Positions 7,127 to 45,967 of a DNA stretch of 64,000 nt are shown here, piece after piece. Under the pieces are notes generated by a model. It searched no databases. It saw only the letters and a program-made list of their open reading frames with translations, and was not told the DNA's origin. Each line of letters opens with the position of its first letter. Position 1 is the stretch's first letter. Location: positions 6,520-70,519 of the forward strand of contig JAFSUM010000033.1 in the NCBI GenBank assembly GCA_017445245.1, given 5' to 3'. The stretch comes from Bacilli bacterium. Its GTDB lineage: Bacteria; Bacillota_I; Bacilli_A; RFN20; CAG-826. The translations under genes and the position numbers were made by a program.

Positions 7127-10100
7127 ATGAAAAGTAGGGTTCTTGGTTCTGTTTCTGTTATTGCTTTGGCTTCGCTAGTTCTCTGCGCATCGCTTTTTGC
7201 TAATAAATCCGTAAGTGAAGTTATGGCGACCGACGACACGGTTTATTTTCGCCCCAATTCGCAATGGGCCATCGGCTCTTCGGTCAACCACTATGCGGCC
7301 TATCTGTGGAAAGGGGAGGGCACTAGCTTCCAAGACGCTTGGATCAATCTCAAGACCGGAACCAACGGTTATTACACATTGGCCCCGAAAGAAGGGTTCG
7401 AGAACCTCATCTTCTGCGTGATGAAAAGCGCGACCAACAGCTGGGACAATGTCCGTTACCAGACCGCCGACCTCAAAATCAACGTTCACGACGCTGATTG
7501 CTTTGCTCTTTACAACCACCGCGCCGAAGAAAAGAAAACGCAAGGGGCGTGGCATACTCTTGGCGAGACTTTACCCGCCGGTGGAGGACAAGAGAATGTC
7601 GCTGGAACCAAAAACGGCACCTTTTATCAATTGCTGGTCTATTCTTTTGCTGACGGCAACGGAGATGGGGTGGGGGACTTCAAAGGCATCATCGACCATC
7701 TCGACTATTTAAAGAACCTCGGCATCAGCGGTCTTTGGCTTTCGCCCATCCAAAAGGCTGGAAGTTACCATGGCTATGACATTCTTGACTACTATGCCGT
7801 AAACCCCGAATACGAAGTCACGGTCGACGGGGTCAAATACGATTTGGCCAAACTCATCACCGAATGCCATAACATTGGCATCAAGGTCATCCTCGACCTC
7901 GTCTTGAATCATTGCTCCTATGGCCACCCGTGGATTACCGAACATCCCAGTTGGTTTACCAATGACCCTGCCTTTGACGGGATGAAGGACTTTAATCTCA
8001 ATAACTCCCAGGTGAACGCCGAACTTAAGAAAATCGGCAAATATTGGCTTACCGAATACGAACTCGATGGCTATCGCCTCGACGCGGTGAAATGGCTCTT
8101 CAATTCGGGTGGCATGAGCTCCGCGGATGATGCGCGCAACATCAACTGGCTCACCAGCTTCTATAACTACTGCAGAACCGAGGCGGGGCGCGACATCTTC
8201 ATGGTCGGCGAAAACTATACGTTCGATTCCGGCGAGCTCGCTTATTATCACAAGCCTTTGGATTCCTCGTTCAACTTCAACGCGATTACCGCCGCATCCG
8301 ACGCCTATGAAAACGGAAACGCGAAAGGCTATGTAACGACGATGACGAACTTTTATTCGAACGTCCATAGCCAAAATAGCAACGCACGCCTTGCCAATTT
8401 CCTTTCCAACCACGACGCAGGTCGCTTCTTCTTGTCGAATCCAGGCGTGGAGAAATACCTCTTCATGAGTTACTTAAACCTGCTTTCTCCCGGCAATTCC
8501 TTTGTCTATTATGGCGACGAGCTTAATCTGCAAGCGTCCGTCACCTACGACAACACCGTGCATAGTTCCGGCTACGAGGATTTCCTCCATCGGACTCCGA
8601 TGCCCTTTGCCACCGGACACACCAACATGGGCACCTATCTACACGGCTTCTCTGATTCCTATCGTCCCTACGTTTCCAATACCTCGGTGCCTCTAACCGG
8701 CGGGACAGCGGATTCTACCGCCTCGGAAATCGCTTCCTTCTATACGGCTTATTCCGAAGCCATCCGCGCTAAAAACGCGGCACCCGTGCTTTATGACGGC
8801 GTCATTTCTTCCAACAACATCGCCGATAACCGTTTGGGTTCTTATGTCGCGAGCAAAGGCGGAAAAGCGGCGACCGTCATCTTCAACGCCTCCCACGATT
8901 GGATTACCTTGCAGATTGATGGGGCGACTACCTCTATCCTCGGCGCGGCCTCTTTCCATGGCCGTCCGACGTTGGAAAGCAACATCCTGACCATCGCCCC
9001 TCTTTCGGGCACGGTACTAAACGGTTCGCATACCTTCTCCGTCTATTCGGGCAGCGTCGATCCTGGCGAAGATCCCGATCCGGGCACGGGGATGCAGATC
9101 TATCTCCGCGGCAGCTTCAATTCCTGGGGCACGCCTTCGAACGCCTTATTCCAAGCTGCGCCCAAAGGAAGCGACTATGACTATTGCCTCCTCAACGTCT
9201 ATATCGCTAAGGGGCAGGAATTCAAAGTCGCCACCGAAGACTGGAGCACCGTGTGCCTAGGCTATTACGATGGGAACACCAGCTTCGGCGACATGGGCGA
9301 CTATTTTTACGAGCACGGCATCGAAAACGACAACATCAAATGCACTGCAAGCGGCTATTACGATTTCTGGCTGACCAAAGGGACGATGTACATCACCCCA
9401 TTCAAAGCCCACGCCGCAAGCCTTTATGGATCGTGGAACGGATGGAAGGCCGGCCTTTCTGCCGAAACGCTGAACCCATGGAATACTTATGTTATCCACG
9501 ACGTCCCCTTAAAAGCCGGCGAAGAGGCGCAGATGTGGGTGCAGGAGTGGGATGGCGAGTACACGTGCTACCTCGTTTTGAAAGATGCGGCGGACATCAC
9601 TTCGCCTGCCGGGCACGCCTTTGTTCCCTCTAGCAACGGCAGGAACATCGAGGCTACCGTGGCGGGAACTTATGACATCGAGGTCATCGCGAACGGTTGG
9701 AACGAATATGGGATTACCTGCTACTACGTGATTACCATGAGCGACTCGGTCCCCGCGGAGGCTATCAACTTCGCCAAATCGTTCAATAACCAAATCGGCG
9801 CGGCATGCGACATTACCGGCAATAGTGACAAAGACACCGTCGTTGCGGCTTGGGCCGCGATGGAAGAGGCCTTCAACGATCTTTCTGCAGAAGCCCAGAC
9901 CGCTTTGAAAGAAGCGACCGCGGATAGTCCCGACGAAGACATGGCTGCCTTCGCGGCCAAATATCGCTCCGTCTATGCCCTTCGTGGGACGATGTGGAGC
10001 CTTAGCAATTTCTTAGACATCGATGTACTTAGTGCGTTTGCCGTTTCGCCGCACGTTGGACAAACCGACGGCAGGCTTATCGCCTTGCTATCCTGCGCGT

Positions 10101-10159
10101 CTATTGGCGTCTTGCTAAGCGGGGCCCTTGTTCTCGTCTATCGGAAACGCAAAGCATAA
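7127..10159 (+). CDS. Secreted GH13 alpha-amylase-family enzyme with starch/glycogen-binding-like modules and a C-terminal membrane anchor
   Basis: Signal peptide present. GH13 regions: GDFKGIIDHLDYLKNLGISGLWLSPI, VILDLVLNHCS, GYRLDAVKW, MVGENY and FLSNHDAGR. CBM-like repeats occur (VYFRPNSQW..., IYLRGSFNSWG...). The protein ends in a hydrophobic helix followed by RKRKA. Confidence 0.85.
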   Translation: MKSRVLGSVSVIALASLVLCASLFANKSVSEVMATDDTVYFRPNSQWAIGSSVNHYAAYLWKGEGTSFQDAWINLKTGTNGYYTLAPKEGFENLIFCVMKSATNSWDNVRYQTADLKINVHDADCFALYNHRAEEKKTQGAWHTLGETLPAGGGQENVAGTKNGTFYQLLVYSFADGNGDGVGDFKGIIDHLDYLKNLGISGLWLSPIQKAGSYHGYDILDYYAVNPEYEVTVDGVKYDLAKLITECHNIGIKVILDLVLNHCSYGHPWITEHPSWFTNDPAFDGMKDFNLNNSQVNAELKKIGKYWLTEYELDGYRLDAVKWLFNSGGMSSADDARNINWLTSFYNYCRTEAGRDIFMVGENYTFDSGELAYYHKPLDSSFNFNAITAASDAYENGNAKGYVTTMTNFYSNVHSQNSNARLANFLSNHDAGRFFLSNPGVEKYLFMSYLNLLSPGNSFVYYGDELNLQASVTYDNTVHSSGYEDFLHRTPMPFATGHTNMGTYLHGFSDSYRPYVSNTSVPLTGGTADSTASEIASFYTAYSEAIRAKNAAPVLYDGVISSNNIADNRLGSYVASKGGKAATVIFNASHDWITLQIDGATTSILGAASFHGRPTLESNILTIAPLSGTVLNGSHTFSVYSGSVDPGEDPDPGTGMQIYLRGSFNSWGTPSNALFQAAPKGSDYDYCLLNVYIAKGQEFKVATEDWSTVCLGYYDGNTSFGDMGDYFYEHGIENDNIKCTASGYYDFWLTKGTMYITPFKAHAASLYGSWNGWKAGLSAETLNPWNTYVIHDVPLKAGEEAQMWVQEWDGEYTCYLVLKDAADITSPAGHAFVPSSNGRNIEATVAGTYDIEVIANGWNEYGITCYYVITMSDSVPAEAINFAKSFNNQIGAACDITGNSDKDTVVAAWAAMEEAFNDLSAEAQTALKEATADSPDEDMAAFAAKYRSVYALRGTMWSLSNFLDIDVLSAFAVSPHVGQTDGRLIALLSCASIGVLLSGALVLVYRKRKA

Positions 10160-10299
10160 AAGCCTGCAAAAAGCGACTTATGTTGAGTTCTGAATGTTTT
10201 TCGTCGAATTGCGCGCCTTTTAGCAAAGCCAAAAGGACGTAATAGCACGCGAATAATGTCCTCATGTATAATATTTCCATACCACGTGGGGGCATATAT

Positions 10300-13200
10300 A
10301 TGAAAAAACGACCACTATTTGCGTTAATGGGGGTTTTGCTGTTGTCTCTTTCTGCCTGCGGTGATGATAATCCGCCGGAAGAATCCTCTAGCAGCGAACC
10401 CGCATCTAGCCAATCTTCCGTCGCTGAGACGTCGGAAACTCCTTCTAGCGAATCCCAGGAACCTAGTAGCAGTTCCTCTAGGCCGAGCTCTTCTAGCTCT
10501 TCGCAAAGGCCTTCTTCTAGCCAGGAGCCTTCTTCGGAACCGACCCCGGGACCAGAACCCGAGCCCTCTTCCGAGTCTTCTTCGACTAGACCTAGCAGCT
10601 CTGGCACGAAGGAATCGAGCGAACCGGAACCCTCTTCCGAACCGCAGCCGTCTAGCAGCGAAGCGCCGTCCTCAGAACCTGAGCCGTCCTCGGAACCAGA
10701 ACCGGAACCTTCTTCTGAGCCTTCCTCCGAATCTTCTAGTGCAGAACCTGTGTACGACTTTGTCGAATTCGTGTGGACATTCGCCGACGGGGTTTATACC
10801 GCCAAGGCAAAATACGTTTCCGACCAGGACCCTTCCGATGTGCATTTGTTCGATGCGGAGATGTCTTACAAGGTCAAATTAGAGCCGACGTGCGAAGAAA
10901 AAGGCATCGGCGTCTTCACCGCTTCCTACGATGGCCATACGGATACTCGCGAAGTCGATATCGATCCCATTAGCCACGACTATAAGTTCGACTCCTTCGT
11001 CTGGGCCGAAGATTATTCCGCCCAAGCCAAGTACGTCTGCGCCCACGACGCCGAACACGTGAAGTACTACACGGCGGAAGTGGACGAAGAAGTGATCCGC
11101 GTCGCGACCTACGATCGGACGGGCTTTATCCGCTATACCGCCTCCTTCGAAGGCCATAGTGAGACCAAAGACCGCGAAACCGATGCCCTCTCTCCGTTCA
11201 CCTTCGAATTGAACGAAGACGGGACAGCCTACACCATCACCAAAATCGATAATCTCGATAACATGGAACTCTTGGTAATTCCCGCCGAATACGAAGGGCT
11301 CCCCGTCACCGCGATCGCCGACAATGTGGCCAATAACGCGCAGAGTCTCCGTAGGGTCGTCTTCCCCGAGACGCTTACTTCCATCGGCACGGGCTTCCTC
11401 GCCAATGCGCAAAAGCTCTCCTACGTCTATTTGCCCAAGACCATTCAGTCCATCGGGTCTTTGACCTTTGGCTATAGCCCGCGTGCCGTCTTTGTTTCCG
11501 ATGCGCCTTCCCGTCCATCCACGTGGAAATTCTCGACCTCCTATACCGCCTATTATGGATGTACGGAGGGCGCGAATCTCTTCACCGTTGACGGTGTTGT
11601 TTATAAGAAAACCGATGCAGGTCTCACCGTAATTGCTTCCGATCCGCTTCAAGTAGGCGGAGACGGCATCCTCTCTATCGGCGGCGAAACTCATAAAGTC
11701 ACCGTCGGTGAAGAAGCCCTTCCCGTCATCGGCATCAACATCTATGCCTTCTTCGGCGTTAACCGCGCCATCGTGGAACTCGATAGCTCTCTAACCATTG
11801 CCAACAATGCGTTTTACGATTGCACTGCGATGACGATTTACGCTCATGCCAGCTTCTCTTCCATCAGCAACGACAGCTCGCAAATCTACCGCGCCCCGAC
11901 GACTGCGGGAGACATCGTCCTCGAAAACGATTGGTATGGCGTCATCGCCAGCGGCCAGGCCGTGTTGCTCCATTACATTGGTGATGAATATGACATCACG
12001 ATCCCGACCTCCTTCATGGAAAACGGCGTTTCTACCGTCGCAGGTCACGCCATTTCGGGCAAAACCCTCCGTTCCATTTATGTTTCGTCCGCCATCCCCG
12101 CTCTCGAGCAATATGCGTTCGTCGTCAGCAACATCGCCTTGATGATGGATGCCGACAAGACCCCGTCTGGCTGGTCTTCCTTCGTGAGCGGTTCCAACAA
12201 TAGATACTATTACCGCGTTACCGAGGATAGTTTTATCGAGCACGACGGTGCCATCTACGTCGCCCATTACGATTCGTGGTACGAGAGGACCTATTTGGGC
12301 TTCTTCCGCCTCGTCGACCCTGAGTGTCAGGCCTTCGTCATCGCCGATGAGATTCTCGTCGGAGAAGAAAATCTGTCCGTCAAATCGATTCTTCCCAACG
12401 CTTTTATCGATAGCAGCGTCACCTGCGTCTACATCCCTAGAGACGTCGACACTATCTACAGCGATCCGGGCCTTACCAACGGCAAAGTGGGCTCCGTCAT
12501 CGTCTATACCAATGCTTCGGACCGTCCGAGCGGATGGAATACCAGCGCGATTTCAGGCCTCACGATTTGCTATGGCCAATCGATCGATAGCCTCTCTGGC
12601 CTCTTCATCAAAGACGGCCTTATCTATCAAACAATCGATAACGAAGGCGTCAAAACCTTGACGGTTCTCGGCTATCAGGGCGAGCAGCCTTCTGCGCTCG
12701 TCGTCCCTGATATCGTCGCTACCGAACAAGGCGACCTTCCCGTCACCGCCATCGGCGAACGGGCCTTCTATGGGATCAAAGGTGTTTCTAGCGTCACGCT
12801 GTCTGGCGTCGTCGAACTCGGGGCCTATGCTTTCGGCTCTTCTTCCATCGAAACGATCGACTTGGGGGATAGCCTCCAATCCATCGCCAACTATGCGTTC
12901 TATCAGTGCCATGACCTCGCCGAAGTTCACTTCCCGGAGAACACCCTCCGTCAAATCGGCACGGACGCGTTCTATTACTGCACCTCGCTACGTGAAGTGC
13001 ATATGCCTGCTTCGGTGACTTCCTTCGGCAACTATTGCTTTGGCAGCTGCAGCAATCTCGTTACCTTCACCTTCCCCGATGAATTCGAGGGTGAAATCCC
13101 GTCTTCCATGTTCTCCAACGACGGAGCCCTTACGGAAATCGTCATCCCCAGAGGCGTAACTTCCATCGGCTATGAGGCCTTCTCTGGTTGTTCTGGCCTA

Positions 13201-31516: not shown

Positions 31517-32035
31517 TTAGATTAAAGAAAGCGGCTTTTTATTGCGATAAATGCAAAGCCTAGTGGTATATCCGTTATCTTCCACAGGTTCATTTTCGGA
31601 GACGAGTTCAAAGTCAGGATGGGCATCGAGGTTCTCGAAGAACACCTCTGCCTCACCATCCGCGTCGACTTTATTTAAGGAAACCTCGTCGACATAAGGG
31701 AGCATCTGACGGTAGATGGAAGCGCCACCGATGACGTAGACGTCACCAGCCTTTTTGGCCTCGTAGATGAGGCGCTTGAATTCTTCCATCGTGTGGGCGG
31801 GAATCGTGTTCTCATATTCGTGGGAATAGTCCGCGGACAAAACGATGTTGATGCGGTTAGGCAACGGCTTTTGGTTTGGGAAGGAAAGAAGCGTCGCTTC
31901 GCCCATGGCTACGGTATGGCCCGAGGTGGTCTCGCGGAACACCTTCATGTCCTTGGGCAGGCGAAAAAGAAGGCCGCCTTTTTTGCCGATGCCGAAATTC
32001 TTGTCGCAGTTAAGGATGGAGATGACTTTGCTCAT
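31517..32035 (-). CDS. folA: Dihydrofolate reductase
   Basis: Contains FGIGKKGGLLFRLPKDMKVFRETT, PLPNRINIVLS and VIGGASIY. Its start overlaps the thyA stop by 4 nt. Confidence 0.85.
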   Translation of the reverse strand: MSKVISILNCDKNFGIGKKGGLLFRLPKDMKVFRETTSGHTVAMGEATLLSFPNQKPLPNRINIVLSADYSHEYENTIPAHTMEEFKRLIYEAKKAGDVYVIGGASIYRQMLPYVDEVSLNKVDADGEAEVFFENLDAHPDFELVSENEPVEDNGYTTRLCIYRNKKPLSLI

Positions 32036-32862
32036 ATGGCGACGGGAATCTTCTCCTCCAGAACTTCATATTCGTAATCGATGAGTTTGAAGTCATCGGT
32101 GGTAAAGGCGTAGAAGTCTTTGACCTCGGGGTTGATCCAAAGCTTCGGCGCGGGATGTAACGGCTTGGCGATGACTTTCTTAACGAGAGGGATGTGGCGG
32201 TCGTAGATGTGCGCGTCGGCAATAACGTGGAGCAGCGTTCCGGCCTTTAATCCCGAAACTTGGGCGAGCATGTGCAGAAGCAAGGCGTATTGGGCCACGT
32301 TCCAGTTGTTCGCGGTGAGCATGTCGTTGCTACGCTGATTGAGAATGCCGTTAAGGGTATCGCCCGAGACGTTAAAGGTCATCGAATAGGCGCAGGGATA
32401 AAGATTCATCTCATGCAGGTCGTCGAAATTGTAGATGTTGGTCATGATTCGACGGGAAGAAGGGTTGTGCTTCAAATCGTAAAGAACGCGGTCGACTTGG
32501 TCGAATTCGCCTTCGGGGTAGATGGATTTTTTGGCGAGCTGATAGCCATAGGCCTTTCCGATTGAACCCGTTTCGTCGGCCCAGGAATCCCAAATGTGGG
32601 AATGGAGGTCATGGATGTTATTGGATTTCTTTTGCCAAATCCAAAGCAACTCATCTAAACAACTCTTAAACGCGGTCCGACGAATGGTAAGGATCGGGAA
32701 CTCTTCCTGCAGATTATAACGGTTCGTGACCCCAAAGATTTTGATGGTATGAGCGGGGGTGCCATCTTCCCAATGGGGGCGCACGGGCAAATGCTCATCG
32801 GAGAATCCGTTCTCCAAGATATCGTGCATGTTTTGGATAAATATTTCGTCAGCGCGGCTCAT
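32032..32862 (-). CDS. thyA: Thymidylate synthase (ThyA)
   Basis: Contains GTPAHT, ELLWIWQ, NPSSRR and the active-site Cys in LYPCAY. The C-terminus reads LWINPEVKDFYAFTTDDFKLIDY. The ATG at 32862 is chosen by alignment to remembered Bacillus ThyA. The alternative start at 32901 adds 13 hydrophobic residues. Confidence 0.9.
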   Translation of the reverse strand: MSRADEIFIQNMHDILENGFSDEHLPVRPHWEDGTPAHTIKIFGVTNRYNLQEEFPILTIRRTAFKSCLDELLWIWQKKSNNIHDLHSHIWDSWADETGSIGKAYGYQLAKKSIYPEGEFDQVDRVLYDLKHNPSSRRIMTNIYNFDDLHEMNLYPCAYSMTFNVSGDTLNGILNQRSNDMLTANNWNVAQYALLLHMLAQVSGLKAGTLLHVIADAHIYDRHIPLVKKVIAKPLHPAPKLWINPEVKDFYAFTTDDFKLIDYEYEVLEEKIPVAI

Positions 32863-32869
32863 GGCAAAG

Positions 32870-32875
32870 ATTATA
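32870..32875 (-). promoter_or_regulatory. TATAAT -10 hexamer 7 nt upstream of the thyA ATG (leaderless candidate)
   Basis: The minus strand reads TGCCTTATAATCTTTGCC-ATG, with no Shine-Dalgarno. Confidence 0.4.
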
Positions 32876-32955
32876 AGGCAAAAGGAAGGAAAATGAAGCA
32901 TAGCTTCACCCTTTGCTATATCATTAGAAGCTAGATAGGGAAAAGGAGAGCAGGA

Positions 32956-33651
32956 ATGGATTTCGTCGGCATGGAAAAACTATCGCTCGTCGACTTCGAC
33001 GATAACCTCACCGCGACCCTTTTCATGGCGGGTTGCCCTTTCCGTTGCCCCTTTTGCCATAATGGCGATCTCGTCCTGCATCCAGAGAAGGCCGAACCGA
33101 TTCCTTTCGAAGAAGTCCTAACCTACCTAAAGAAGCGCCAGGGCGTCCTTGACGCGGTTTGCATCACGGGCGGCGAGCCTACTCTTATGCCCGACCTCGA
33201 AGACAAGATTCGCGCGATCCGTGACCTCGGCTATAAGATCAAACTCGATTCCAACGGCTTCCAGCCTCACGTTTTGGAAAACCTTATCGGCAAAGGCCTG
33301 CTCGACTATGTGGCGATGGACATCAAAAACTGTCCCGAGAAATATGACCTTACAATCGGTACCCATGTGGATCTCGATTTGATTGAGCGTTCGATTCGTC
33401 TATTGATGAATTCGGGCATCGACTACGAATTCCGTACGACGACAATTGAGGAATTCCATAGCGAGGAAGACATTGAAAAACTCGCCCGATGGATTCAAGG
33501 GGCGAGTCGGTATTTCCTGCAGAAGTACATCGATTCCGAGAACTGCATCCAGCATTACTTCCATGCGATTTCGCCGCAGAAAGCGGATAGGTATTTGCAA
33601 ATCGTGCGTAAATACGTGCCGAATGCGCAGTTGCGCGGTTTCGACGATTAA
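32956..33651 (+). CDS. nrdG: Anaerobic ribonucleotide reductase activating protein (radical SAM)
   Basis: AAAGGAGAG Shine-Dalgarno. Contains SLVDFDDNLTATLFMAGCPFRCPFCHN (CxxxCxxC) and ITGGEP. Confidence 0.85.
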   Translation: MDFVGMEKLSLVDFDDNLTATLFMAGCPFRCPFCHNGDLVLHPEKAEPIPFEEVLTYLKKRQGVLDAVCITGGEPTLMPDLEDKIRAIRDLGYKIKLDSNGFQPHVLENLIGKGLLDYVAMDIKNCPEKYDLTIGTHVDLDLIERSIRLLMNSGIDYEFRTTTIEEFHSEEDIEKLARWIQGASRYFLQKYIDSENCIQHYFHAISPQKADRYLQIVRKYVPNAQLRGFDD

Positions 33652-34556
33652 CGGCTGAGATATTTGGCGATTTCAACGCCGGCGATCGCGCCGTCACTGG
33701 TCGCGGTGATGACTTGGCGGATGCCTTTCCGACGGCAATCGCCGACGGCATAGACGCCAGGGGTCTTGGTTTCCATTTTGTCGTTGGCGAGGATGAAGCC
33801 GCGTTCATCAAGATCGACGATGCCTTTGAAGCGTTCGTTGTCGGGTTGCTGTCCGATGCAGATGAAGACGCCACTGGCTTTATAGGTGACCTTCTCTTTC
33901 GTCTGGGTATCTTCAAAGAGGACGCCTTCGATTTCGTTTTCGCCAAGGAATTCGACAGAGGCGAGGTTATGACGGTAGGAGATGTTTTCGATGTGCTTGA
34001 TGCGTTCGATAAGAATCTCGTCGGCGAAGAAATGATCGAAGAGGGTCGCGATTTGGACGTGGGTGCAGATATCGGAGAGGGAAATCGCGTATTGGAGAGC
34101 GGTGTTCGCGTCGCCGATGATAATAACATCCTGCTTGGCGAAGAACGCGCCATCGCAGACCGCGCAATAGGAGATGCCGTGTCCGACCAATTCGTCTTCG
34201 CGGGCGAGCCCGAGTTTCTTATGCTCGCAGCCCGTGGCTAATACGACGGTTTTGCCCTCGTATTCGTTGAAGTCCGTTTTGACAGTAAAGGTACCGTTAG
34301 GTTTCTTGATGACCTCCATGCCGTTTTCGACTTCGAAGCTGGCGCCCAGATCCGTAATCTGATCAAAGAGTTGGCTCGCGAAATCTTCGCCCGCGATCGA
34401 GGTGATGGAAGGGAAATTTTCTAGGCGCGGGGACTTGGCGACTTGGCCGCCGATGGATTCGCGCTCTAGCAGGATAACCTTCTTGCCAGCCCTTAAGAGA
34501 TAGAGGGCGGCGGTCATGCCCGCAGGGCCGCAACCGATGATGATGGAATCGTACAT
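33648..34556 (-). CDS. Thioredoxin-reductase-like flavoprotein that keeps the CAVC redox centre but lacks NADPH-binding motifs
   Basis: The FAD-binding motif IIIGCGPAG is present, as are the redox centre SYCAVCDG and the C-terminal GVYAVGD. The canonical GGGxxAxEEA reads IIGDANTALQYA, and the canonical HRRxxxR reads LFDHFFAD. Confidence 0.8.
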   Translation of the reverse strand: MYDSIIIGCGPAGMTAALYLLRAGKKVILLERESIGGQVAKSPRLENFPSITSIAGEDFASQLFDQITDLGASFEVENGMEVIKKPNGTFTVKTDFNEYEGKTVVLATGCEHKKLGLAREDELVGHGISYCAVCDGAFFAKQDVIIIGDANTALQYAISLSDICTHVQIATLFDHFFADEILIERIKHIENISYRHNLASVEFLGENEIEGVLFEDTQTKEKVTYKASGVFICIGQQPDNERFKGIVDLDERGFILANDKMETKTPGVYAVGDCRRKGIRQVITATSDGAIAGVEIAKYLSR

Positions 34557-34577: not shown

Positions 34578-34603
34578 GAAGGCCCCTGAAATCAGGAGCC
34601 TTC
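34578..34603 (-). terminator. Strong hairpin between nrdD and the TrxR-like gene (partial terminator or processing site)
   Basis: The minus strand reads GAAGGCTCCTGA..TCAGGGGCCTTC followed by TTCTTC. The AAAGGAGAA Shine-Dalgarno of the next gene follows. Confidence 0.35.
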
Positions 34604-34622: not shown

Positions 34623-37004
34623 TTAGGCTTTGACGGATTCGATATAGCCTTTGATGAGAGAGGCGTTTTCGAAGGTCTTGTAGCCTTCTTTGCTCGGGAC
34701 GATGAGGGTCGGGGCCTGCTTGATGCCATAGGCGTCGACGAGGTCGCGGTTGGAGGCGGCGTCGACGTTGGTGTAGTGGATGCCAGCCTTATCGAGGAGC
34801 ATTTTCGCGAGCTTGCAGTTCGGGCAGGTCGGGGAAGTGAAGAGGACGAGGCCTTCAAGCTTCTGGACAGGGGCCGCTTTCTGCTCGGGTTCGACCGCAC
34901 AGGAGGCGCCTTCTTTGGCGATGGGTTCCTGGTCTTCGTGGATGACGTAGGTCTTGCGCATGTTGAATTCCTGAACCTTGCCGGCGTTCCAGTTCTTGAC
35001 CGGACGGTAGTAACCGGTGATGCGGGAGTAGACTTCGGTTTCCTTGCCGCAGGTCGGGCAACGATATTGCTCGCCGGAGATATAGCCGTGATCGGAGCAG
35101 ATCGAATAGGTCGGCGACATCGTGTAATAGGGGAGCTTGTAGTTGTTCGCGATCTTGCGGACGAGCTTCATGCAGGATTCCCAGCTCGGGAGGCGCTGAC
35201 CAAGGAAGCTATGGAAGACGGTGCCGGAGGTATAGAGGGTCTGGAAGCGGTCTTCGATGTCGAGGGCTCCGAAGATGTCATCGGTATAACCGACGGGGAG
35301 GTGGCTCGAGTTGGTGTAATAGGGGGTCTCGCCATTTTGGGAAGCGGTGATGATGTCGGGGTAACGCTGCTTGTCATGCTTAGCAAGGCGGTAGGAGGTG
35401 GATTCGGCGGGAGTGGCTTCGAGGTTATAGAGGTCGCCATATTGTTCCTGGAAGTCGGAGAGGCGGTTCCTCATGTGGTTGAGGACCTCTTCGGTGAAAT
35501 CCTGAGCTTCCTTATAGGTCAAGTCGACGCCGATCCAACGGGCGTTGAGGCAGGCTTCGTTCATACCGACCAAACCGATGGTGGAGAAGTGGTTGTTGAA
35601 GGTGCCGAGGTAATGTTTGGTATAGGGGTAGAGGCCAGCTTCGAGGAGTTTGCTGACGGTCTGGCGCTTCACTTTGAGGGAGCGCGCGGAGATTTCCATT
35701 AAGCGGTCGAGTCTAGAGTAGAAGTCGGCCTTATCGGTCGCGAGGTAAGCGATACGGGGCATGTTGATGGTGACGACGCCGATGGAACCGGTCGATTCGC
35801 CGGAACCGAAGAAACCACCGGTCTTTTTGCGGAGTTCGCGGAGGTCGAGACGGAGACGGCAGCACATCGAACGGACGTCGCTAGGCTTCATGTCGCTGTT
35901 GATGTAGTTGGAGAAATAGGGAGTGCCGTATTTCGCGGTCATCGTGAAGAGAAGCTTGTTGTTCTCGGTCGGGGACCAGTCGAAATCGCGGGTGATGGAA
36001 TAGGTCGGGATCGGATATTGGAAGCCACGGCCATTCGCGTCGCCTTCGATCATCGTTTCGATGAAGGCTTTGTTGACCATCGCCATTTCTTCTTTGCAAT
36101 CGGCGTAGGTGAAGTCCATTTCCTCGCCGCCGACGATCGCCGGGAGGTTGGCCATGTCATCGGGCACGGTCCAGTCGAGGGTGATGTTGGTGAAGGGGGA
36201 TTGGGTGCCCCAGCGGGAGGGTGTGTTGACGCCATAGATGAAGGATTGGATGCACTGTTTGACGTCTTTGTAGGTCAAGTGGTCTTTCTTGACGAATGGG
36301 GCGAGGTAGGTATCGAAGGAAGAGAACGCCTGCGCGCCTGCCCATTCGTTTTGCATGATGCCGAGGAAGTTGACCATCTGGTTGCAGAGGGTCATGAGGT
36401 GACGGGCGGGGGAGGAGGTGATCTTGCCCGGGACGCCGCCGAGACCTTCTTTGATGAGTTGCTTCAAAGACCAGCCAGCGCAGTAGCCGGTAAGCATCGA
36501 AAGGTCATGGATGTGGATGTCGGCGTTTCTATGGGCATCGGCGATTTCCTTGTCATAGACCTCGGAGAGCCAGTAGTTGGCCGTAACGGCGCCGGAGTTG
36601 GAAAGGATAAGGCCACCGACGGAATAGGTGACGGTGGAGTTTTCCTTGACGCGCCAGTCGGCGACGCGGAGATAGGAGTCGACGACGTTTTTGAAGTCGA
36701 GGCTCGTGTCTTTGACGTTGCGGATCGCGGCGTGCTTTGCACGGTAATCCATATAAGAACGGGCAACATCGACGTAGCCGGTCTGAATCAAGACGATTTC
36801 AACCGCGTCTTGGATGTCTTCGACGCCGACGATTTCGTTTTTGATTTTGCTGTTCAGAGTGCTGGTGACGCGCAAAGCCAAAAGCTCGATGATATCCGAG
36901 GTGAATTCCTGGTGTTCGGCCCGGAAAGCGCGCTCGATGGCACTTTCGATCTTCTTCAGGTCGAACGGGACGAAGGAGCCGTCTCTTTTACATACTTGTA
37001 ACAT
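34623..37004 (-). CDS. nrdD: Anaerobic (class III) ribonucleoside-triphosphate reductase with a C-terminal glutaredoxin/NrdH-like domain
   Basis: An ATP-cone begins the protein (MLQVCKRDGSFVPFDLKKI). Also present are the thiyl loop SMCCRLRL, the Zn site CSDHG...CPTCG and the glycyl-radical motif SRITGYYRPV. The protein then continues for about 100 more residues, ending in LVLFTSPTCPNCKLAK...QAPTLIV (thioredoxin fold with CPNC). Confidence 0.9.
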   Translation of the reverse strand: MLQVCKRDGSFVPFDLKKIESAIERAFRAEHQEFTSDIIELLALRVTSTLNSKIKNEIVGVEDIQDAVEIVLIQTGYVDVARSYMDYRAKHAAIRNVKDTSLDFKNVVDSYLRVADWRVKENSTVTYSVGGLILSNSGAVTANYWLSEVYDKEIADAHRNADIHIHDLSMLTGYCAGWSLKQLIKEGLGGVPGKITSSPARHLMTLCNQMVNFLGIMQNEWAGAQAFSSFDTYLAPFVKKDHLTYKDVKQCIQSFIYGVNTPSRWGTQSPFTNITLDWTVPDDMANLPAIVGGEEMDFTYADCKEEMAMVNKAFIETMIEGDANGRGFQYPIPTYSITRDFDWSPTENNKLLFTMTAKYGTPYFSNYINSDMKPSDVRSMCCRLRLDLRELRKKTGGFFGSGESTGSIGVVTINMPRIAYLATDKADFYSRLDRLMEISARSLKVKRQTVSKLLEAGLYPYTKHYLGTFNNHFSTIGLVGMNEACLNARWIGVDLTYKEAQDFTEEVLNHMRNRLSDFQEQYGDLYNLEATPAESTSYRLAKHDKQRYPDIITASQNGETPYYTNSSHLPVGYTDDIFGALDIEDRFQTLYTSGTVFHSFLGQRLPSWESCMKLVRKIANNYKLPYYTMSPTYSICSDHGYISGEQYRCPTCGKETEVYSRITGYYRPVKNWNAGKVQEFNMRKTYVIHEDQEPIAKEGASCAVEPEQKAAPVQKLEGLVLFTSPTCPNCKLAKMLLDKAGIHYTNVDAASNRDLVDAYGIKQAPTLIVPSKEGYKTFENASLIKGYIESVKA

Positions 37005-37410
37005 GTGTTTTTTCCTCCAATTTTTACTAGTCCAACACAGGGCTTCAAAAACCGACAGTCAGGCGGAGCCGCCACTATGCTGGGGGCGTGATAAGACCCT
37101 CCCTAGGTCTTGCGTGTCATATGTTACAGGCGAGGGGGTAAAAATCAATGCCTTTGCTTGGGCCTTCTTTTTCTTAAGAAAAGTGGCACTTGAAAAACGG
37201 ATTTTGGGCCCTCTCTTTCGAAGCCATCGAAGAAATCAAAAATGGATTAGTAGTTTTTTAGTGTCAATCCATCCCTCGAAAGTGGGAAAGTTGATGTTCC
37301 TTTATTTCGACAGTGTCTAAGAAAACCAATAATCATTAGGCCGTATCTGAAAATCCTGTTGTTTTCATTAAAGGGCCTATTGCCCAGGAGAAAATAAAGA
37401 ACCCCAAGTT

Positions 37411-37439
37411 TTGCCCAAAAAGAGCGGTGTCTTTATATT
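37411..37439 (+). promoter_or_regulatory. Sigma-70-type promoter candidate (TTGCCC, 17-bp spacer, TATATT) for the MscL-like gene
   Basis: Direct reading. It would give a 5' UTR of about 70 nt ending in an AGGAGG Shine-Dalgarno. Confidence 0.4.
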
Positions 37440-37514
37440 CACGCGCTCACAATAACGTTGAAATTAGAAAAGACCGAATTAAAATCAACGCAGTCTTTCA
37501 GGAGGTATTTATTC

Positions 37515-41994: not shown

Positions 41995-43338
41995 ATGAAG
42001 AAATACACAAAATCGGACATTCTAGAAATGGCCAAAAAAGAGAAAGTCAGCTACGTGCGACTTCAGTTTTCGGACATCCTGGGCAATATCAAGGCGGTGG
42101 AAATCTCCGTTTCCCAACTTCCGGATGCCTTGGACAACAAAATTATTTTCGACGGTTCTTCGATCGAAGGCTTCGTCCGTATTAAAGAAGCGGACATGTT
42201 CCTTCATCCGGACTTTAGCACGTGGATGATTTTGTCCTTTGAAGACAATACTCATGGAACGGTCGCTCGTCTGATTTGCGACGTCTATACCTCCTATGGG
42301 AAACCGTTCCAAGGCGACCCGCGTTACATCCTCAAAAAACAAATAAAAGCGTTAAATGACGCGGGAATTGCAAGCTTTGACTGCGGATTTGAGCCAGAAT
42401 TCTTCCTTTTCAAATTAGATGAAAATGGCAATCCGACCGTGGATCCGGTGGATAACGGAAGCTATTTCGATTTGTCGCCTATCGACGGTGCCGAATACGT
42501 TAGGCGCGACATCGCCCTCGAACTAGAAAAACTCGGTTTCGTCATTTCCACGGCCCATCACGAAGTCGCGCCTGGTCAGGAAGAAGTCAACTTCCGTTTC
42601 GCCACCGTCCTTGAAGCCTGCGACAACGTCCAAACCTTCAAGCAGGTCGTTAAGTTCATCGCGAGGAAGCACGGCTACTACGCGACCTTCATGCCAAAGC
42701 CTATCGCGGGCATCAACGGTTCTGGTATGCACACTAATTGCTCGATGTCCGATGCGGAAGGGACGAACGTTTTCTTCGATCCGAAAGATCCGATGAAGCT
42801 CTCTCTTGTCTGCCGCAAGTTCATCACTGGCATCATCAAGCACGCTCGTGGCATGACCGCGATCACCAATCCGACCGTCAATTCTTATAAGCGCTTGATC
42901 CCCGGCTATGAAGCGCCTTGCTATGTCTGCTGGAGCGACGCGAACCGTTCTTCAATGATTCGCATTCCCTCCCAGCGCGGACAGGCGACTCGCGCCGAAC
43001 TGCGCCATGTCGATGGTACCAGCAACCCTTATTTGGCCCTTGCTGTCATCATTGCTGCCGGCCTTGATGGAATTCAAAACCTCAAGGACGACGAACTCGT
43101 CCCGCCGGTCTATGACAATATCTTTGCGTTGACGCGCCAGCAACGTGAAGCCCAGGGTATTCCGAACCTTCCCGAGAACCTAAAGGACGCTTTAAAAGAA
43201 GCCCAGAACGATCCCCTCATTTACAAGACGTTAGGCGAACATGCCTTCACCAAGTTCGTCGAAGCCAAATCCATTGAATGGGATGAGTTCCGCTGCTTGG
43301 TTACCGAGTGGGAACTCAAAAAATACCTATCTCGCTAA
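41995..43338 (+). CDS. glnA: Glutamine synthetase type I
   Basis: Contains VSYVRLQFSDILGNIK, GFEPEFFLF, HHEVAPGQEE, MPKPIAGINGSGMH and NPTVNSYKRL. Confidence 0.9.
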   Translation: MKKYTKSDILEMAKKEKVSYVRLQFSDILGNIKAVEISVSQLPDALDNKIIFDGSSIEGFVRIKEADMFLHPDFSTWMILSFEDNTHGTVARLICDVYTSYGKPFQGDPRYILKKQIKALNDAGIASFDCGFEPEFFLFKLDENGNPTVDPVDNGSYFDLSPIDGAEYVRRDIALELEKLGFVISTAHHEVAPGQEEVNFRFATVLEACDNVQTFKQVVKFIARKHGYYATFMPKPIAGINGSGMHTNCSMSDAEGTNVFFDPKDPMKLSLVCRKFITGIIKHARGMTAITNPTVNSYKRLIPGYEAPCYVCWSDANRSSMIRIPSQRGQATRAELRHVDGTSNPYLALAVIIAAGLDGIQNLKDDELVPPVYDNIFALTRQQREAQGIPNLPENLKDALKEAQNDPLIYKTLGEHAFTKFVEAKSIEWDEFRCLVTEWELKKYLSR

Positions 43339-43403
43339 ATAGAATTTCATTACGCCCGCCTTTGCCTATGGCTTTTCGCTACGAAGAAAAGCAAAATTAT
43401 GGA

Positions 43404-44555
43404 ATGAAAGTTGGCATTATCGGGGCTTCCGCGGCCGGTTTATATACCGCCATCCTCGTGGCAAAACGCCACCCGGATTATCGAGTTGTCGTCCTCGAGA
43501 AAAACGATAAAGCAGGAAAGAAATTGCTCGCGACGGGCAATGGACACTGCAATTTGTTCAATCTTTCGTTTTCCGGCAACGCGTTTAACCACCCAGAATT
43601 CGTTAATACCTTATTAAATAAATATAGTGTTTCAGACTTGCTCGCGACGTTCCGGGAACTAGGTATTTCCACAATTGAGAAAGACGGACTTCTATATCCG
43701 CTTTCCTTTAGCGCAGCCGCCCACGTTCGTTATTTGGTTACGCTTGCAGAGTCACTTGGGGTTCAATTCCGTTATGGCGAAAGGGTCGTTGGGATTAATG
43801 GACCGCAAGTAACGACAGATAAAAATGTTTATTCATTCGACAAGCTTGTTTATGCCTTCGGAGGCAAAAGCCAAGCCAATTTAGGGTCGGATGGATCCAT
43901 GTTCCTTCTCCTTTCAAAAAAGGGATATCACCTCGTAGAACAAGAGCCTTCTTTGTGCCCTCTTAAGAGCCCTGAGGTGCCAAAATCGCTATTCGGAATA
44001 CGCCATAAATGCGAGTTATGGTTGACGAAAGAAAACATGACTCTATATCACGAAATTGGCGAGGTGCTATTCAAAAAAGACGGCCTCTCTGGAATCGCCA
44101 TCATGAACGCTTCTTCTAGATACGAAAAAGGAGCGAGCGTCCGAATCGATTTGTTCCCAGAGCTAAGCGAGAAAGAACTCTATGAGAACCTGTGCCGTTC
44201 TTACCGCGCCAACCAAAGGGAATTCTTGGCGGCCGTATTAGAAAGGCCCTTAGAAGAATTTATCCTGCAAAAATCTAATATTTCATGCAAAACTGCGATA
44301 AAAGAATCTGATATTTCAAAGATTTGCAGCGTTTTGAAATCTCTTCAATTCCGTATTTCCGGGAAATATGGCTTTGAATCATCACAGGTTACAAGAGGCG
44401 GGATCGATTTGCGTGAGGTTGGAGAGAACCTTGAATCAAAACTGGAACCCAACGTATTTTTTACCGGAGAATGTTTGGACATCGACGGGCTGTGCGGAGG
44501 CTATAATTTGGGCTGGGCCCTGCTTTCCTCCAAGGTGGTCGCGGGGGCTTTATGA
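43404..44555 (+). CDS. HI0933/YhiN(BaiN)-family FAD-dependent oxidoreductase
   Basis: Contains VGIIGASAAGLY (a Rossmann-fold motif), KLLATGNGHCNL and a C-terminal GECLDIDGLCGGYNL. Confidence 0.7.
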   Translation: MKVGIIGASAAGLYTAILVAKRHPDYRVVVLEKNDKAGKKLLATGNGHCNLFNLSFSGNAFNHPEFVNTLLNKYSVSDLLATFRELGISTIEKDGLLYPLSFSAAAHVRYLVTLAESLGVQFRYGERVVGINGPQVTTDKNVYSFDKLVYAFGGKSQANLGSDGSMFLLLSKKGYHLVEQEPSLCPLKSPEVPKSLFGIRHKCELWLTKENMTLYHEIGEVLFKKDGLSGIAIMNASSRYEKGASVRIDLFPELSEKELYENLCRSYRANQREFLAAVLERPLEEFILQKSNISCKTAIKESDISKICSVLKSLQFRISGKYGFESSQVTRGGIDLREVGENLESKLEPNVFFTGECLDIDGLCGGYNLGWALLSSKVVAGAL

Positions 44556-45967
44556 AATTTTTAGTTGACGATATTCTAGTAAACGAAAAAGATGCACCTG
44601 CCACTATTCGAAAGAAGGTGGCGGACCGGCTTGGCGCGAACTATCGAAGCCTTCGTATTCAGGTTTTGAATCGCCGTTGGATTCGTAACGAGGACGGGGG
44701 TCATGTTCTCCTTTCCATTCTTGCCGAGACCAACGAGTTCCTTCGCTCTACGACAACTTTTGCCTATTCTGGTGATCCTGATTTGAAGCTTGAAAAACCT
44801 TCTTGGAAAGATCGTCCGGTCGTCGCGGGATTTGGGATTCCGGGAATCATCGCCGCTTACTATTTGGTGAAGCGCGGCTTGAAACCTATCGTGCTTGAAA
44901 GGGGCGACAGTCTTACGAAACAAGGGACATCTCCGAAAGACAAAGAGACTCTTACCCCCGACGATGAAGGCGGCATCTTTGCTCACTCGGGCGGCATCTA
45001 CAACACGGACAACATGGATAAGGAACTTCGCGCTATGTTAGCCGAAGACGGCATCCTGTTTTTCGAACCCGATGCATATGGCTTCTTAACGCCAATCCAA
45101 GTCCGAAACATTATCAGCAAACTCCATTCTTATATTGTCGATAGGGGAGGCGAAATCATCTTCAACGCGACATACCTCGGCATCAAAAAACGATTTGGCA
45201 GATTCAAAGGCGTCCTTTATTCGCATGAAGGAACGAGCAAAATCATCAAGACAACAAAGTTGCTTTTGACCTATGGCGCGTGTGACGATGTTTTCTTTGT
45301 CGGCACCAGCGTCCCAACCCTTCCCCAGAATTTCAACACTTGCATCTACGACCGGAAGACGATTGATGAAAAGGTTGCCCCTTTCTATGCGGAGTCCGAA
45401 ATCAAATTACCTCAGACCACGAGAGGACTCTTTCTTACTGGTTTAAAGAACGCGCGCGTAATGGATATCGGTTTCCGTTCCGAGATGTGTTTACAGACAT
45501 ACAACTTCGACGGAAAAGGAAAATACATCCATTCCTTCATCGGCGTGGAGACGACAAAAGAAGAGGCGGAAAAGATTTGCAAAGGCGCCTATGACACGGG
45601 CAAACCAAGACGGATTCCTTGCTCTGGCGTAAATGATTTCCTCACGAAGAAGAATCCGCTTCGTCTTGGTTCAATCAAACCAGAACGCGTCGCAGACATC
45701 CGCCTAGACAGCTTCGCCAAACTTATGGGGGCCATCACGGCTAGAAGGTTAGCCAACGTCTTGAATCACTGCGCGAAGACCTATCCTTATCTCGTTGCCA
45801 AAGACTCCATCCTCGAAGGGTTGATGGTCTTTTCAGGTTGCAAAGATGACGAGCCCCAGAAGATTGACGGGATCTATGTCTCGAGAGTCGCAGCTATCCA
45901 TTCGATGGATTTTTCGGCCAAGGCAACCTCGGGTTTTCGCGCGGCCAAGCTGATGTGCGAACGATAA
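44552..45967 (+). CDS. FAD-dependent protein (COG2509-like)
   Basis: Contains PVVAGFGIPGIIAAYYLVKRGLKPIVLERG. Its start overlaps the upstream stop (ATGA). Confidence 0.6.
   Translation: MKFLVDDILVNEKDAPATIRKKVADRLGANYRSLRIQVLNRRWIRNEDGGHVLLSILAETNEFLRSTTTFAYSGDPDLKLEKPSWKDRPVVAGFGIPGIIAAYYLVKRGLKPIVLERGDSLTKQGTSPKDKETLTPDDEGGIFAHSGGIYNTDNMDKELRAMLAEDGILFFEPDAYGFLTPIQVRNIISKLHSYIVDRGGEIIFNATYLGIKKRFGRFKGVLYSHEGTSKIIKTTKLLLTYGACDDVFFVGTSVPTLPQNFNTCIYDRKTIDEKVAPFYAESEIKLPQTTRGLFLTGLKNARVMDIGFRSEMCLQTYNFDGKGKYIHSFIGVETTKEEAEKICKGAYDTGKPRRIPCSGVNDFLTKKNPLRLGSIKPERVADIRLDSFAKLMGAITARRLANVLNHCAKTYPYLVAKDSILEGLMVFSGCKDDEPQKIDGIYVSRVAAIHSMDFSAKATSGFRAAKLMCER

Follow-up and report, generated by a model that had tools for sequence, protein, structure and literature searches.

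A thioredoxin reductase-like flavoprotein with a remodelled NAD(P)H pocket, encoded beside a class III ribonucleotide reductase with a tethered redoxin

The low-relative-molecular-mass (low-Mr) thioredoxin reductases (TrxRs) are recognised by two signatures, the GGGxxAxE which binds the pyrophosphate and the HRRDxxR which binds the 2'-phosphate of NADPH, and there is in addition a short list of thioredoxin reductases that are independent of NAD(P)H. We have analysed a gene that would add a further lineage to this list. It lies at 33648–34556 on the reverse strand of a 64,000-nucleotide stretch of a Bacilli bacterium genome (contig JAFSUM010000033.1 of assembly GCA_017445245.1, positions 6,520 to 70,519; hereafter the window), and encodes a TrxR-like flavoprotein of 302 residues, which we term type C, in which neither signature is present. 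Directly upstream of it on the same strand, across a 66-nucleotide (nt) spacer, is nrdD, the gene of a class III ribonucleotide reductase (RNR) that carries a redoxin domain at its C-terminus. The explanation that we favour, with a probability of about 0.6, is that the product is a homodimer-type low-Mr flavoprotein of thioredoxin reductase fold, that it belongs to a lineage dedicated to class III RNR, and that it would serve in an electron relay to the tethered redoxin.

Among the described enzymes, the FFTR and DTR proteins (from Clostridium pasteurianum; C. acetobutylicum, 6gna–6gnd; Gloeobacter, 5j60 and 6xtf) resemble type C in their low-Mr fold, flavin adenine dinucleotide (FAD), CxxC motif and occurrence in anaerobes, and in the absence of both GxGxxA and HRRxxxR. 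Their partner is a free thioredoxin, whereas that of type C would be an RNR-tethered redoxin, and type C lacks the C-terminal Trp tail that is a feature of DTR and cyanobacterial FFTRs (PMC12796991). The inert-to-NAD(P)H enzyme DvTRi (5nii) is alike in having an acidic residue in the pyrophosphate motif (GEG against GDA), a replaced HRR, no known donor and a distribution restricted to anaerobes (PMC5627308). The signature of the TRi enzymes is TQ/NGK with GEGxxAxN, however, and that of type C is TLFD with GDAxxAxY; moreover the TRi gene is monocistronic and its product reduces Trx1, whereas the type-C gene is tied to nrdD.

On the side of the RNR, the NrdD3 of Methanosarcina barkeri is reportedly fed from ferredoxin via a dedicated ferredoxin:disulfide reductase and a redoxin resembling NrdH, encoded next to nrdD; that archaeal reductase is said to be an Fe-S, FTR-like protein rather than a flavoprotein, and its redoxin a separate protein. 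How the common double-cysteine class III RNRs are supplied with reductant is known from essentially one enzyme, the NrdD2 of Neisseria bacilliformis, which is reduced by the generic thioredoxin/TrxR/NADPH system (Wei et al. 2014, as summarised in PMC9669993 and PMC4493059). As far as those summaries describe it, the Neisseria enzyme shares with ours two finger-loop cysteines, and its active-site disulfide is restored to the thiol form by a redoxin and a flavoprotein of the TrxR type, as is proposed for ours; here, in contrast, the redoxin is fused and NrdH/glutaredoxin-like, with CPNC in place of WCGPC, the finger loop reads MCCR instead of SCCR, and the reductase is co-located, specialised and without an NADPH site. 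In Facklamia ignava a glutaredoxin (Grx) domain fused to NrdB has been shown to act as the RNR reductant, and a single grx::nrdD fusion is listed in Lachnospiraceae TWA4 with no reductase partner described (PMC6187632). The Facklamia protein is a class I RNR with an N-terminal fusion to a glutathione-dependent Grx, whereas the fusion here is C-terminal, NrdH-like and to a class III enzyme. A literature search returned no paper describing a module of nrdD::redoxin, reductase and nrdG, and the variant is real, conserved and apparently undescribed.

A thioredoxin reductase fold with a remodelled nucleotide pocket

The open reading frame (ORF) begins with ATG, preceded at a distance of 8 nt by the ribosome-binding site AAAGGAG. 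Its product is matched end to end by Pfam Pyr_redox_2 (PF07992, 1.3e-43) and over residues 2–300 by TIGR01292 (TRX_reduct), at 297.9 bits, below the curated equivalog cut-off of 343.45. Its best sequence matches among solved structures (phmmer) are NADPH-dependent TrxRs of Firmicutes (Bacillus cereus 7aaw, 209 bits; Staphylococcus aureus 4gcm; Streptococcus pyogenes 5uwy), and an AlphaFold2 model (mean pLDDT 88.4, with 33 homologues in the input) matches solved low-Mr TrxRs in Foldseek with TM scores of 0.84–0.89. The two Rossmann domains of a low-Mr TrxR are both present, together with the ATG motif and GDC (residues 272–274). The FAD-binding GxGxxG is intact as GCGPAG (residues 8–13, 34518–34535; this and the following coordinates are on the reverse strand unless stated otherwise), with G8, G10 and P11 invariant in the homologue alignment. 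The redox-active CAVC is likewise intact (residues 131–134, 34155–34166), neither of its cysteines varying among the 131 type-C sequences or in any relative. The thioredoxin-binding pair F138/F139 is retained, and the chain ends in ...EIAKYLSR at residue 302, level with the C-terminus of the TrxRs and without Trp.

It is at the NAD(P)H site that the protein differs from canonical TrxRs. Alignment with 7aaw, 4gcm and 5uwy places GDANTALQY (residues 148–156, 34089–34115) where the pyrophosphate-binding GGGxxAxE should be, with GDANTA (148–153) opposite GGGDSA, and places TLFDHFF (residues 171–177, 34026–34046) where the 2'-phosphate-binding HRRDxFR should be, opposite HRRDxLR. Intact NADPH-binding residues were sought in this alignment and both signatures are absent. 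An earlier note on this DNA, made from its letters alone, had described the FAD and CAVC motifs as intact and the second dinucleotide motif as GDANTA in place of GGGxxA, all of which agrees with the alignment; it was also right in substance about the HRRxxxR motif, whose His and three Arg are all gone, but the replacement that it quoted, LFDHFFAD, is one residue out of register.

The new residues are not peculiar to this gene. All of the 120 best homologues in a collection of 5.8 billion proteins, at 58–100% identity, have both IGDANTALQY and TLFD[KHR]FF; those that are named come from a “Bacilli bacterium” or “Candidatus Enteromonas”. Some of the database names read “thioredoxin reductase (NADPH)”; such automatic labels on type-C genes are probably wrong. 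The remodelled motifs occur in 131 of 131 type-C sequences and in none of 66 relatives of the NADPH type or of a second variant, type B, described below, a difference that chance could not produce. Within type C, D149 and Y156 are invariant (131/131) and A150 nearly so (128/131), at positions where the relatives have Gly, Glu/Asp and Gly, respectively, and T171, L172, F173 and F177 are conserved to 95–100% at the sites of H, R, R and R in the NADPH-type relatives. Taking as clade-defining any position that is at least 90% conserved in the 131 type-C proteins and shared with at most 10% of the 66 relatives, we find nine: L45, D149, A150, Y156, T171, L172, F173, F177 and F214. L45 alone falls outside the pseudo-NADPH domain; of the eight within it, seven correspond to classical NAD(P)H ligand positions and the other is F214. 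The changes to the pocket are thus specific: three Arg have become Leu, Phe and Phe, the His has become Thr and the Glu Tyr, an Asp has entered the glycine-rich turn and the second Gly of the fingerprint is Ala. Because these replacement residues are conserved across type C, the pocket has been remodelled rather than having decayed, and a pseudogene is ruled out.

By the rules established for Rossmann folds, a pocket that has lost the second fingerprint Gly and has a carboxylate beside that site should not accept the pyrophosphate. DvTRi, in which GEGxxAxN and TQGK occupy the equivalent sites, has been assayed and is reduced by neither NADPH nor NADH, and the NADH-using TR3 enzymes retain GGGxxAxE (PMC5627308). 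On these three grounds, both NADPH and NADH appear unlikely as donors for type C.

A conserved module and its lineage

A scan of one genome per species gave 80 loci, in 40 of which, and in the window, making 41, a TrxR homologue lies just downstream of nrdD. The spacer between the two genes is mostly 0–30 nt. All 41 of the linked NrdDs have a [MI]CCR finger loop and a C-terminal redoxin, with TCPNCK in 36 of them. The reductases fall into three types by their input side. Type A is of the NADPH type, with GGGxxALQ and HRRDxFR; type B keeps GGGNSALQEA and has [VI]QNLxxxTGE in place of HRRDxFR; and type C has the GDAN and TLFD motifs. This natural series, from NADPH-type through GGG kept and HRR lost to fully remodelled, bears on what reduces NrdD in strict anaerobes and on how a TrxR switches donor. 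Type C was found in the window and in L001–L008, L044 and L050, which are metagenome-assembled genomes (MAGs) of Bacilli, Christensenellaceae-like bacteria and other Clostridia, and it is linked to nrdD::redoxin in all 11 of these loci. When the genes of the 11 loci were clustered all against all, the conserved neighbours were nrdD, the reductase and nrdG, with no fourth gene; nrdG is present in seven, convergent every time. The connection with the NrdD-fused redoxin proposed in the earlier note therefore holds as a conserved module. This module is a self-contained solution of three genes, conserved widely among the Firmicutes of gut and rumen: an NrdD bearing an NrdH-like domain on a tether, a flavoprotein reductase dedicated to it, and NrdG. 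We claim the link to nrdD for the core clade only, because distant representatives with GD[AG]N-like or B-like motifs (P0173, P0168 and P0222) sit on short or phage-like contigs without nrdD.

Shared residues place the gene in the same lineage as its nrdD-linked relatives. Q155 is found in 160 of 160 nrdD-linked TrxRs of types A to C, whereas 34 of 37 unlinked housekeeping TrxBs have Glu. Residue 44 is Arg or Lys in all three linked types (R44 here) and Asp or Glu in the housekeeping TrxBs. In the thioredoxin-contact motif G[R/K]G (residue 126), the Arg/Lys has been lost or changed to His/Lys in all three linked types. The window gene, downstream of an nrdD::CPNC-redoxin and with Q155 and a basic residue 44, has the marks of this lineage. 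Q155, the basic residue 44 and the altered contact motif together mark, in our reading, a lineage dedicated to NrdD whose partner is not ordinary thioredoxin. The closest relatives of type C with intact motifs are other nrdD-linked TrxRs.

Two trees bear on the history of the module. In a tree of 215 TrxR homologues from which the motif columns had been removed, all the type-C genome loci fall together, and the B clade is elsewhere, next to A-type linked enzymes, from which we conclude that HRR has been lost at least twice. In an independent tree of NrdD, the partners of type C all belong to a single clade (SH-aLRT 95), which argues that the module was inherited as a unit and the pocket rebuilt in situ. 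Judged by these sequence comparisons, this lineage most likely gave up NAD(P)H on its own, separately from TRi and from the FFTRs of clostridia and cyanobacteria.

Some further observations concern the variants. Type B loci (L009, L010, L013, L015–L017, L019, L021, L022, L025, L027, L032, L038, L043, L049, L051, L056, L067 and L073) form a clade of their own in Oscillospiraceae, Acutalibacteraceae and other Clostridia, with the TrxR gene at about 10001–10900 in most of them; type B may use NADH or another donor. On the phage-like contig L087 (5412–7389) a TrxR homologue with HFC..CDG, GGGNS and QDL...TAE is located between thymidine kinase and nucleoside deoxyribosyltransferase, with Thg1-like, NADAR, CTP-transferase-like and NAPRTase genes downstream, and in the tree several such “HFC” sequences group close to type C. 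L003 (CAVJMG010000001.1) is titled “uncultured Bacteroidales bacterium”; its NrdD and TrxR-like protein are 86% and 56% identical to those of the window, and the bin label is probably wrong, since the locus clusters with Bacilli MAGs.

The proposed relay and its electron donor

The partner NrdD (34623–37004, 793 residues) is matched by PF03477, PF13597 and PF00462, by NF006126 at 1121 bits and by the structures 8p23 and 4coi. It consists of an ATP-cone, the NRDD core, a linker of ~28 residues and the redoxin domain. The double-cysteine finger loop, of the motif class defined in PMC9669993, is MCCR (residues 380–383, 35856–35867), and its second cysteine (xCCR) is that of the NrdD2 type. The glycyl-radical motif, located by alignment with the glycyl loop of NrdD structures, is RITGY (residues 661–665, 35010–35024). 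The tethered NrdH/glutaredoxin-like domain spans residues 716–793 (34626–34859; Pfam Glutaredoxin, 4e-7), has its CPNC active site at 34815–34826, and matches the NrdH-redoxins 1r7h, 4hs1 and 4f2i and the Grx 2klx. The activase NrdG, a radical SAM protein, is encoded convergently (32956–33651, forward strand; TIGR02495 NrdG2, 214.6 bits).

Redoxins of the NrdH type are substrates of TrxR. Taking this together with the synteny, the flavoprotein is most likely, as far as sequence and gene order can tell, the dedicated reductase of the tethered redoxin. In the relay that we propose, an external donor would reduce FAD, which would reduce the C131/C134 disulfide; the resulting dithiol would reduce the CPNC disulfide of the tethered domain, and this domain would in turn reduce the disulfide that arises with every turnover in the NrdD active site, where the conserved beta-A cysteine pairs with a finger-loop (MCCR) cysteine. 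The last two steps are proposed on the strength of synteny, the dependence of NrdH on TrxR, the thioredoxin-dependent NrdD of Neisseria and the Grx::NrdB fusion.

The least secure step is the first, in which FAD would be reduced by a low-potential carrier, ferredoxin or flavodoxin, drawn from the general pool rather than encoded in the module. Such a pool must exist because NrdG needs priming. Ferredoxin or flavodoxin is a reasonable analogy, since it serves the clostridial and cyanobacterial FFTRs and, reportedly, the class III RNR of M. barkeri. In general terms, the synthesis of DNA precursors, the deoxynucleoside triphosphates (dNTPs), in these gut bacteria probably draws on an electron source other than NADPH. 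Our specific proposal is more tentative, and could well prove wrong: that GDAxxAxY/TLFDxFF marks a further, independently evolved family of NAD(P)H-independent flavin disulfide reductases, arising within the NrdD-dedicated lineage and wiring low-potential electrons at the level of ferredoxin or flavodoxin directly into deoxyribonucleotide synthesis by way of the redoxin tethered to NrdD. If true, many Firmicutes of the gut and rumen would have their dNTP supply tied to the ferredoxin pool of fermentation instead of to NADPH or formate.

Several observations weigh against this picture. Neither the 64-kb window nor, recurrently, the 10 kb around any type-C locus contains a ferredoxin, flavodoxin or PFOR gene, in a search of 87 loci by ferredoxin/flavodoxin regular expressions and by tblastn with approximate probe sequences. 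The pseudo-NADPH domain has a mean net charge of −7.1 in type C, compared with −4.7 and −4.1 in the NADPH-type relatives, and this greater acidity gives no hint of a new surface on which acidic ferredoxins or flavodoxins could dock; as a proxy for such docking, the comparison is at most slightly adverse. The MCCR loop retains the Met associated with formate chemistry (PMC9669993), and for this reason NrdD may not rely solely on this thiol relay. In the TrxR tree, finally, the node of core type C is weakly supported (SH-aLRT 27).

The lack of a linked ferredoxin or flavodoxin gene would also suit an enzyme which is independent of NAD(P)H and takes its electrons from elsewhere, the candidates including rubredoxin, a carrier linked to hydrogenase, a second flavoprotein and free reduced flavin. 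No donor is known for TRi or for the Thermoplasma TrxR and an archaeal relative uses F420 (PMC5627308), and the aromatic residues of the new pocket (Y156, F173, F176, F177 and F214) could hold a small aromatic ligand. These aromatics may, however, merely plug an empty pocket, and every bacterial NAD(P)H-independent low-Mr TR of known donor uses ferredoxin; we therefore regard another donor as unlikely. As a separate observation on the energy metabolism of such organisms, a relative at 58% identity, from a contig of 1.03 Mb (L083:2482–6627), has the three genes of a HydABC-type bifurcating [FeFe]-hydrogenase just upstream of nrdD, with a NUDIX gene between; this shows ferredoxin-based metabolism in that organism, in an arrangement which is not conserved in the other loci.

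We are a little more sceptical that the electron source is the ordinary one after all, with NADH or NADPH bound in a non-canonical manner. In its favour, the domain fold is retained in a model of high confidence, D174, F176 and E/D179 of the old motif remain, and the sister nrdD-linked enzymes are of the NADPH type. Such binding would nevertheless have to accommodate the acidic side chain that GDAxxA, in place of GxGxxA, puts where the pyrophosphate binds, and to dispense with the three Arg and the His, now Leu, Phe, Phe and Thr, and the precedents discussed above, DvTRi being inert to NAD(P)H after comparable changes and NADH-specific TRs keeping GGG, also speak against it (PMC5627308).

That the reductase is simply a member of the FFTR family, as the earlier note suggested in likening the loss of its motifs to that of the ferredoxin- or flavodoxin-dependent enzymes, is very improbable. 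Like the FFTRs, it lacks GxGxxA and HRRxxxR and comes from anaerobic Firmicutes, and a survey has equated “non-NTR” with “probably FFTR” (PMC10880999). The criteria for family membership were bit scores and Foldseek ranks, and the resemblance fails on both. The protein scores 196–209 bits with NADPH TrxRs (209 with that of B. cereus) and only 96 and 89 with CaFFTR (6gna and 6gnc), 123 with GvDTR (5j60), 86.5 with DvTRi (5nii) and 65 with DDOR, and there is no FFTR among the top 50 Foldseek matches to its model. In the alignment with FFTR, 274 residues of the chain stand against 295 of the query, and hence the FFTR deletions are absent from the reductase; it ends at residue 302 with no C-terminal Trp tail; and it shares Q155 and the basic residue 44 with the NADPH-type nrdD-linked TrxRs. 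On this sequence distance we reject FFTR membership: of the earlier proposal, the NrdD-redoxin partner survives and the family label does not, the nearest relatives of the gene with intact motifs being themselves nrdD-linked.

Least credible of all is that the gene encodes the cell's general thioredoxin reductase and is next to nrdD by chance, since, although a single TrxB is reported for Bacilli in the same survey and the window has no other TrxR gene, the adjacency recurs in 41 loci across Bacilli and Clostridia with near-zero spacers, Q155 and residue 44 are specific to the lineage, the thioredoxin-contact residue 126 is altered, the reductase shares its phylogeny with NrdD, and other Bacilli MAGs have an unlinked NADPH-type TrxB (L041).

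The locus and its neighbourhood

Scans of the whole window detected neither another TrxR nor a WCGPC thioredoxin nor a CxxCxxCxxxCP ferredoxin motif, the sole CGPC match being in a QueH-like ORF. Promoter and terminator scans did not rise above the shuffled expectation, and there was no Rfam match anywhere in the window. The metagenomes holding the locus, from bovine and sheep gut, are DNA only, and we infer co-transcription of nrdD and the reductase gene from their spacing. Between these two genes lies a hairpin (34578–34603) with an 11-bp stem, a 4-nt loop and no U-tract (construct energy −26 kcal/mol, z −3.4), which was not called by the terminator scan. It is specific to this lineage, most relatives having gaps of 0–30 nt, and may somewhat lower the expression of the reductase gene.

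At the other end of the reductase gene, its stop codon overlaps that of nrdG by 4 nt (TTAA, 33648–33651), leaving no space for terminators, and the same is seen in L001, L003, L050 and L081. Such tail-to-tail overlap in several type-C loci implies, from the sequence, that the convergent transcripts would overlap. Upstream of nrdD is a non-coding leader of ~450 nt (37005–37457), in which neither an Rfam family nor, allowing 3 mismatches, an NrdR box was found. Further away, two adjacent overlapping ORFs (43308–45967, forward strand; 415 and 471 residues) show an HI0933-like FAD protein and a faint DAO match (Pfam, in L081). Directly beyond nrdG are thyA (289 residues) and folA (172 residues), which overlap by 4 nt and occupy 31517–32901 on the reverse strand, so that nrdD, the reductase, nrdG, thyA and folA together form a compact neighbourhood for deoxynucleotide synthesis.

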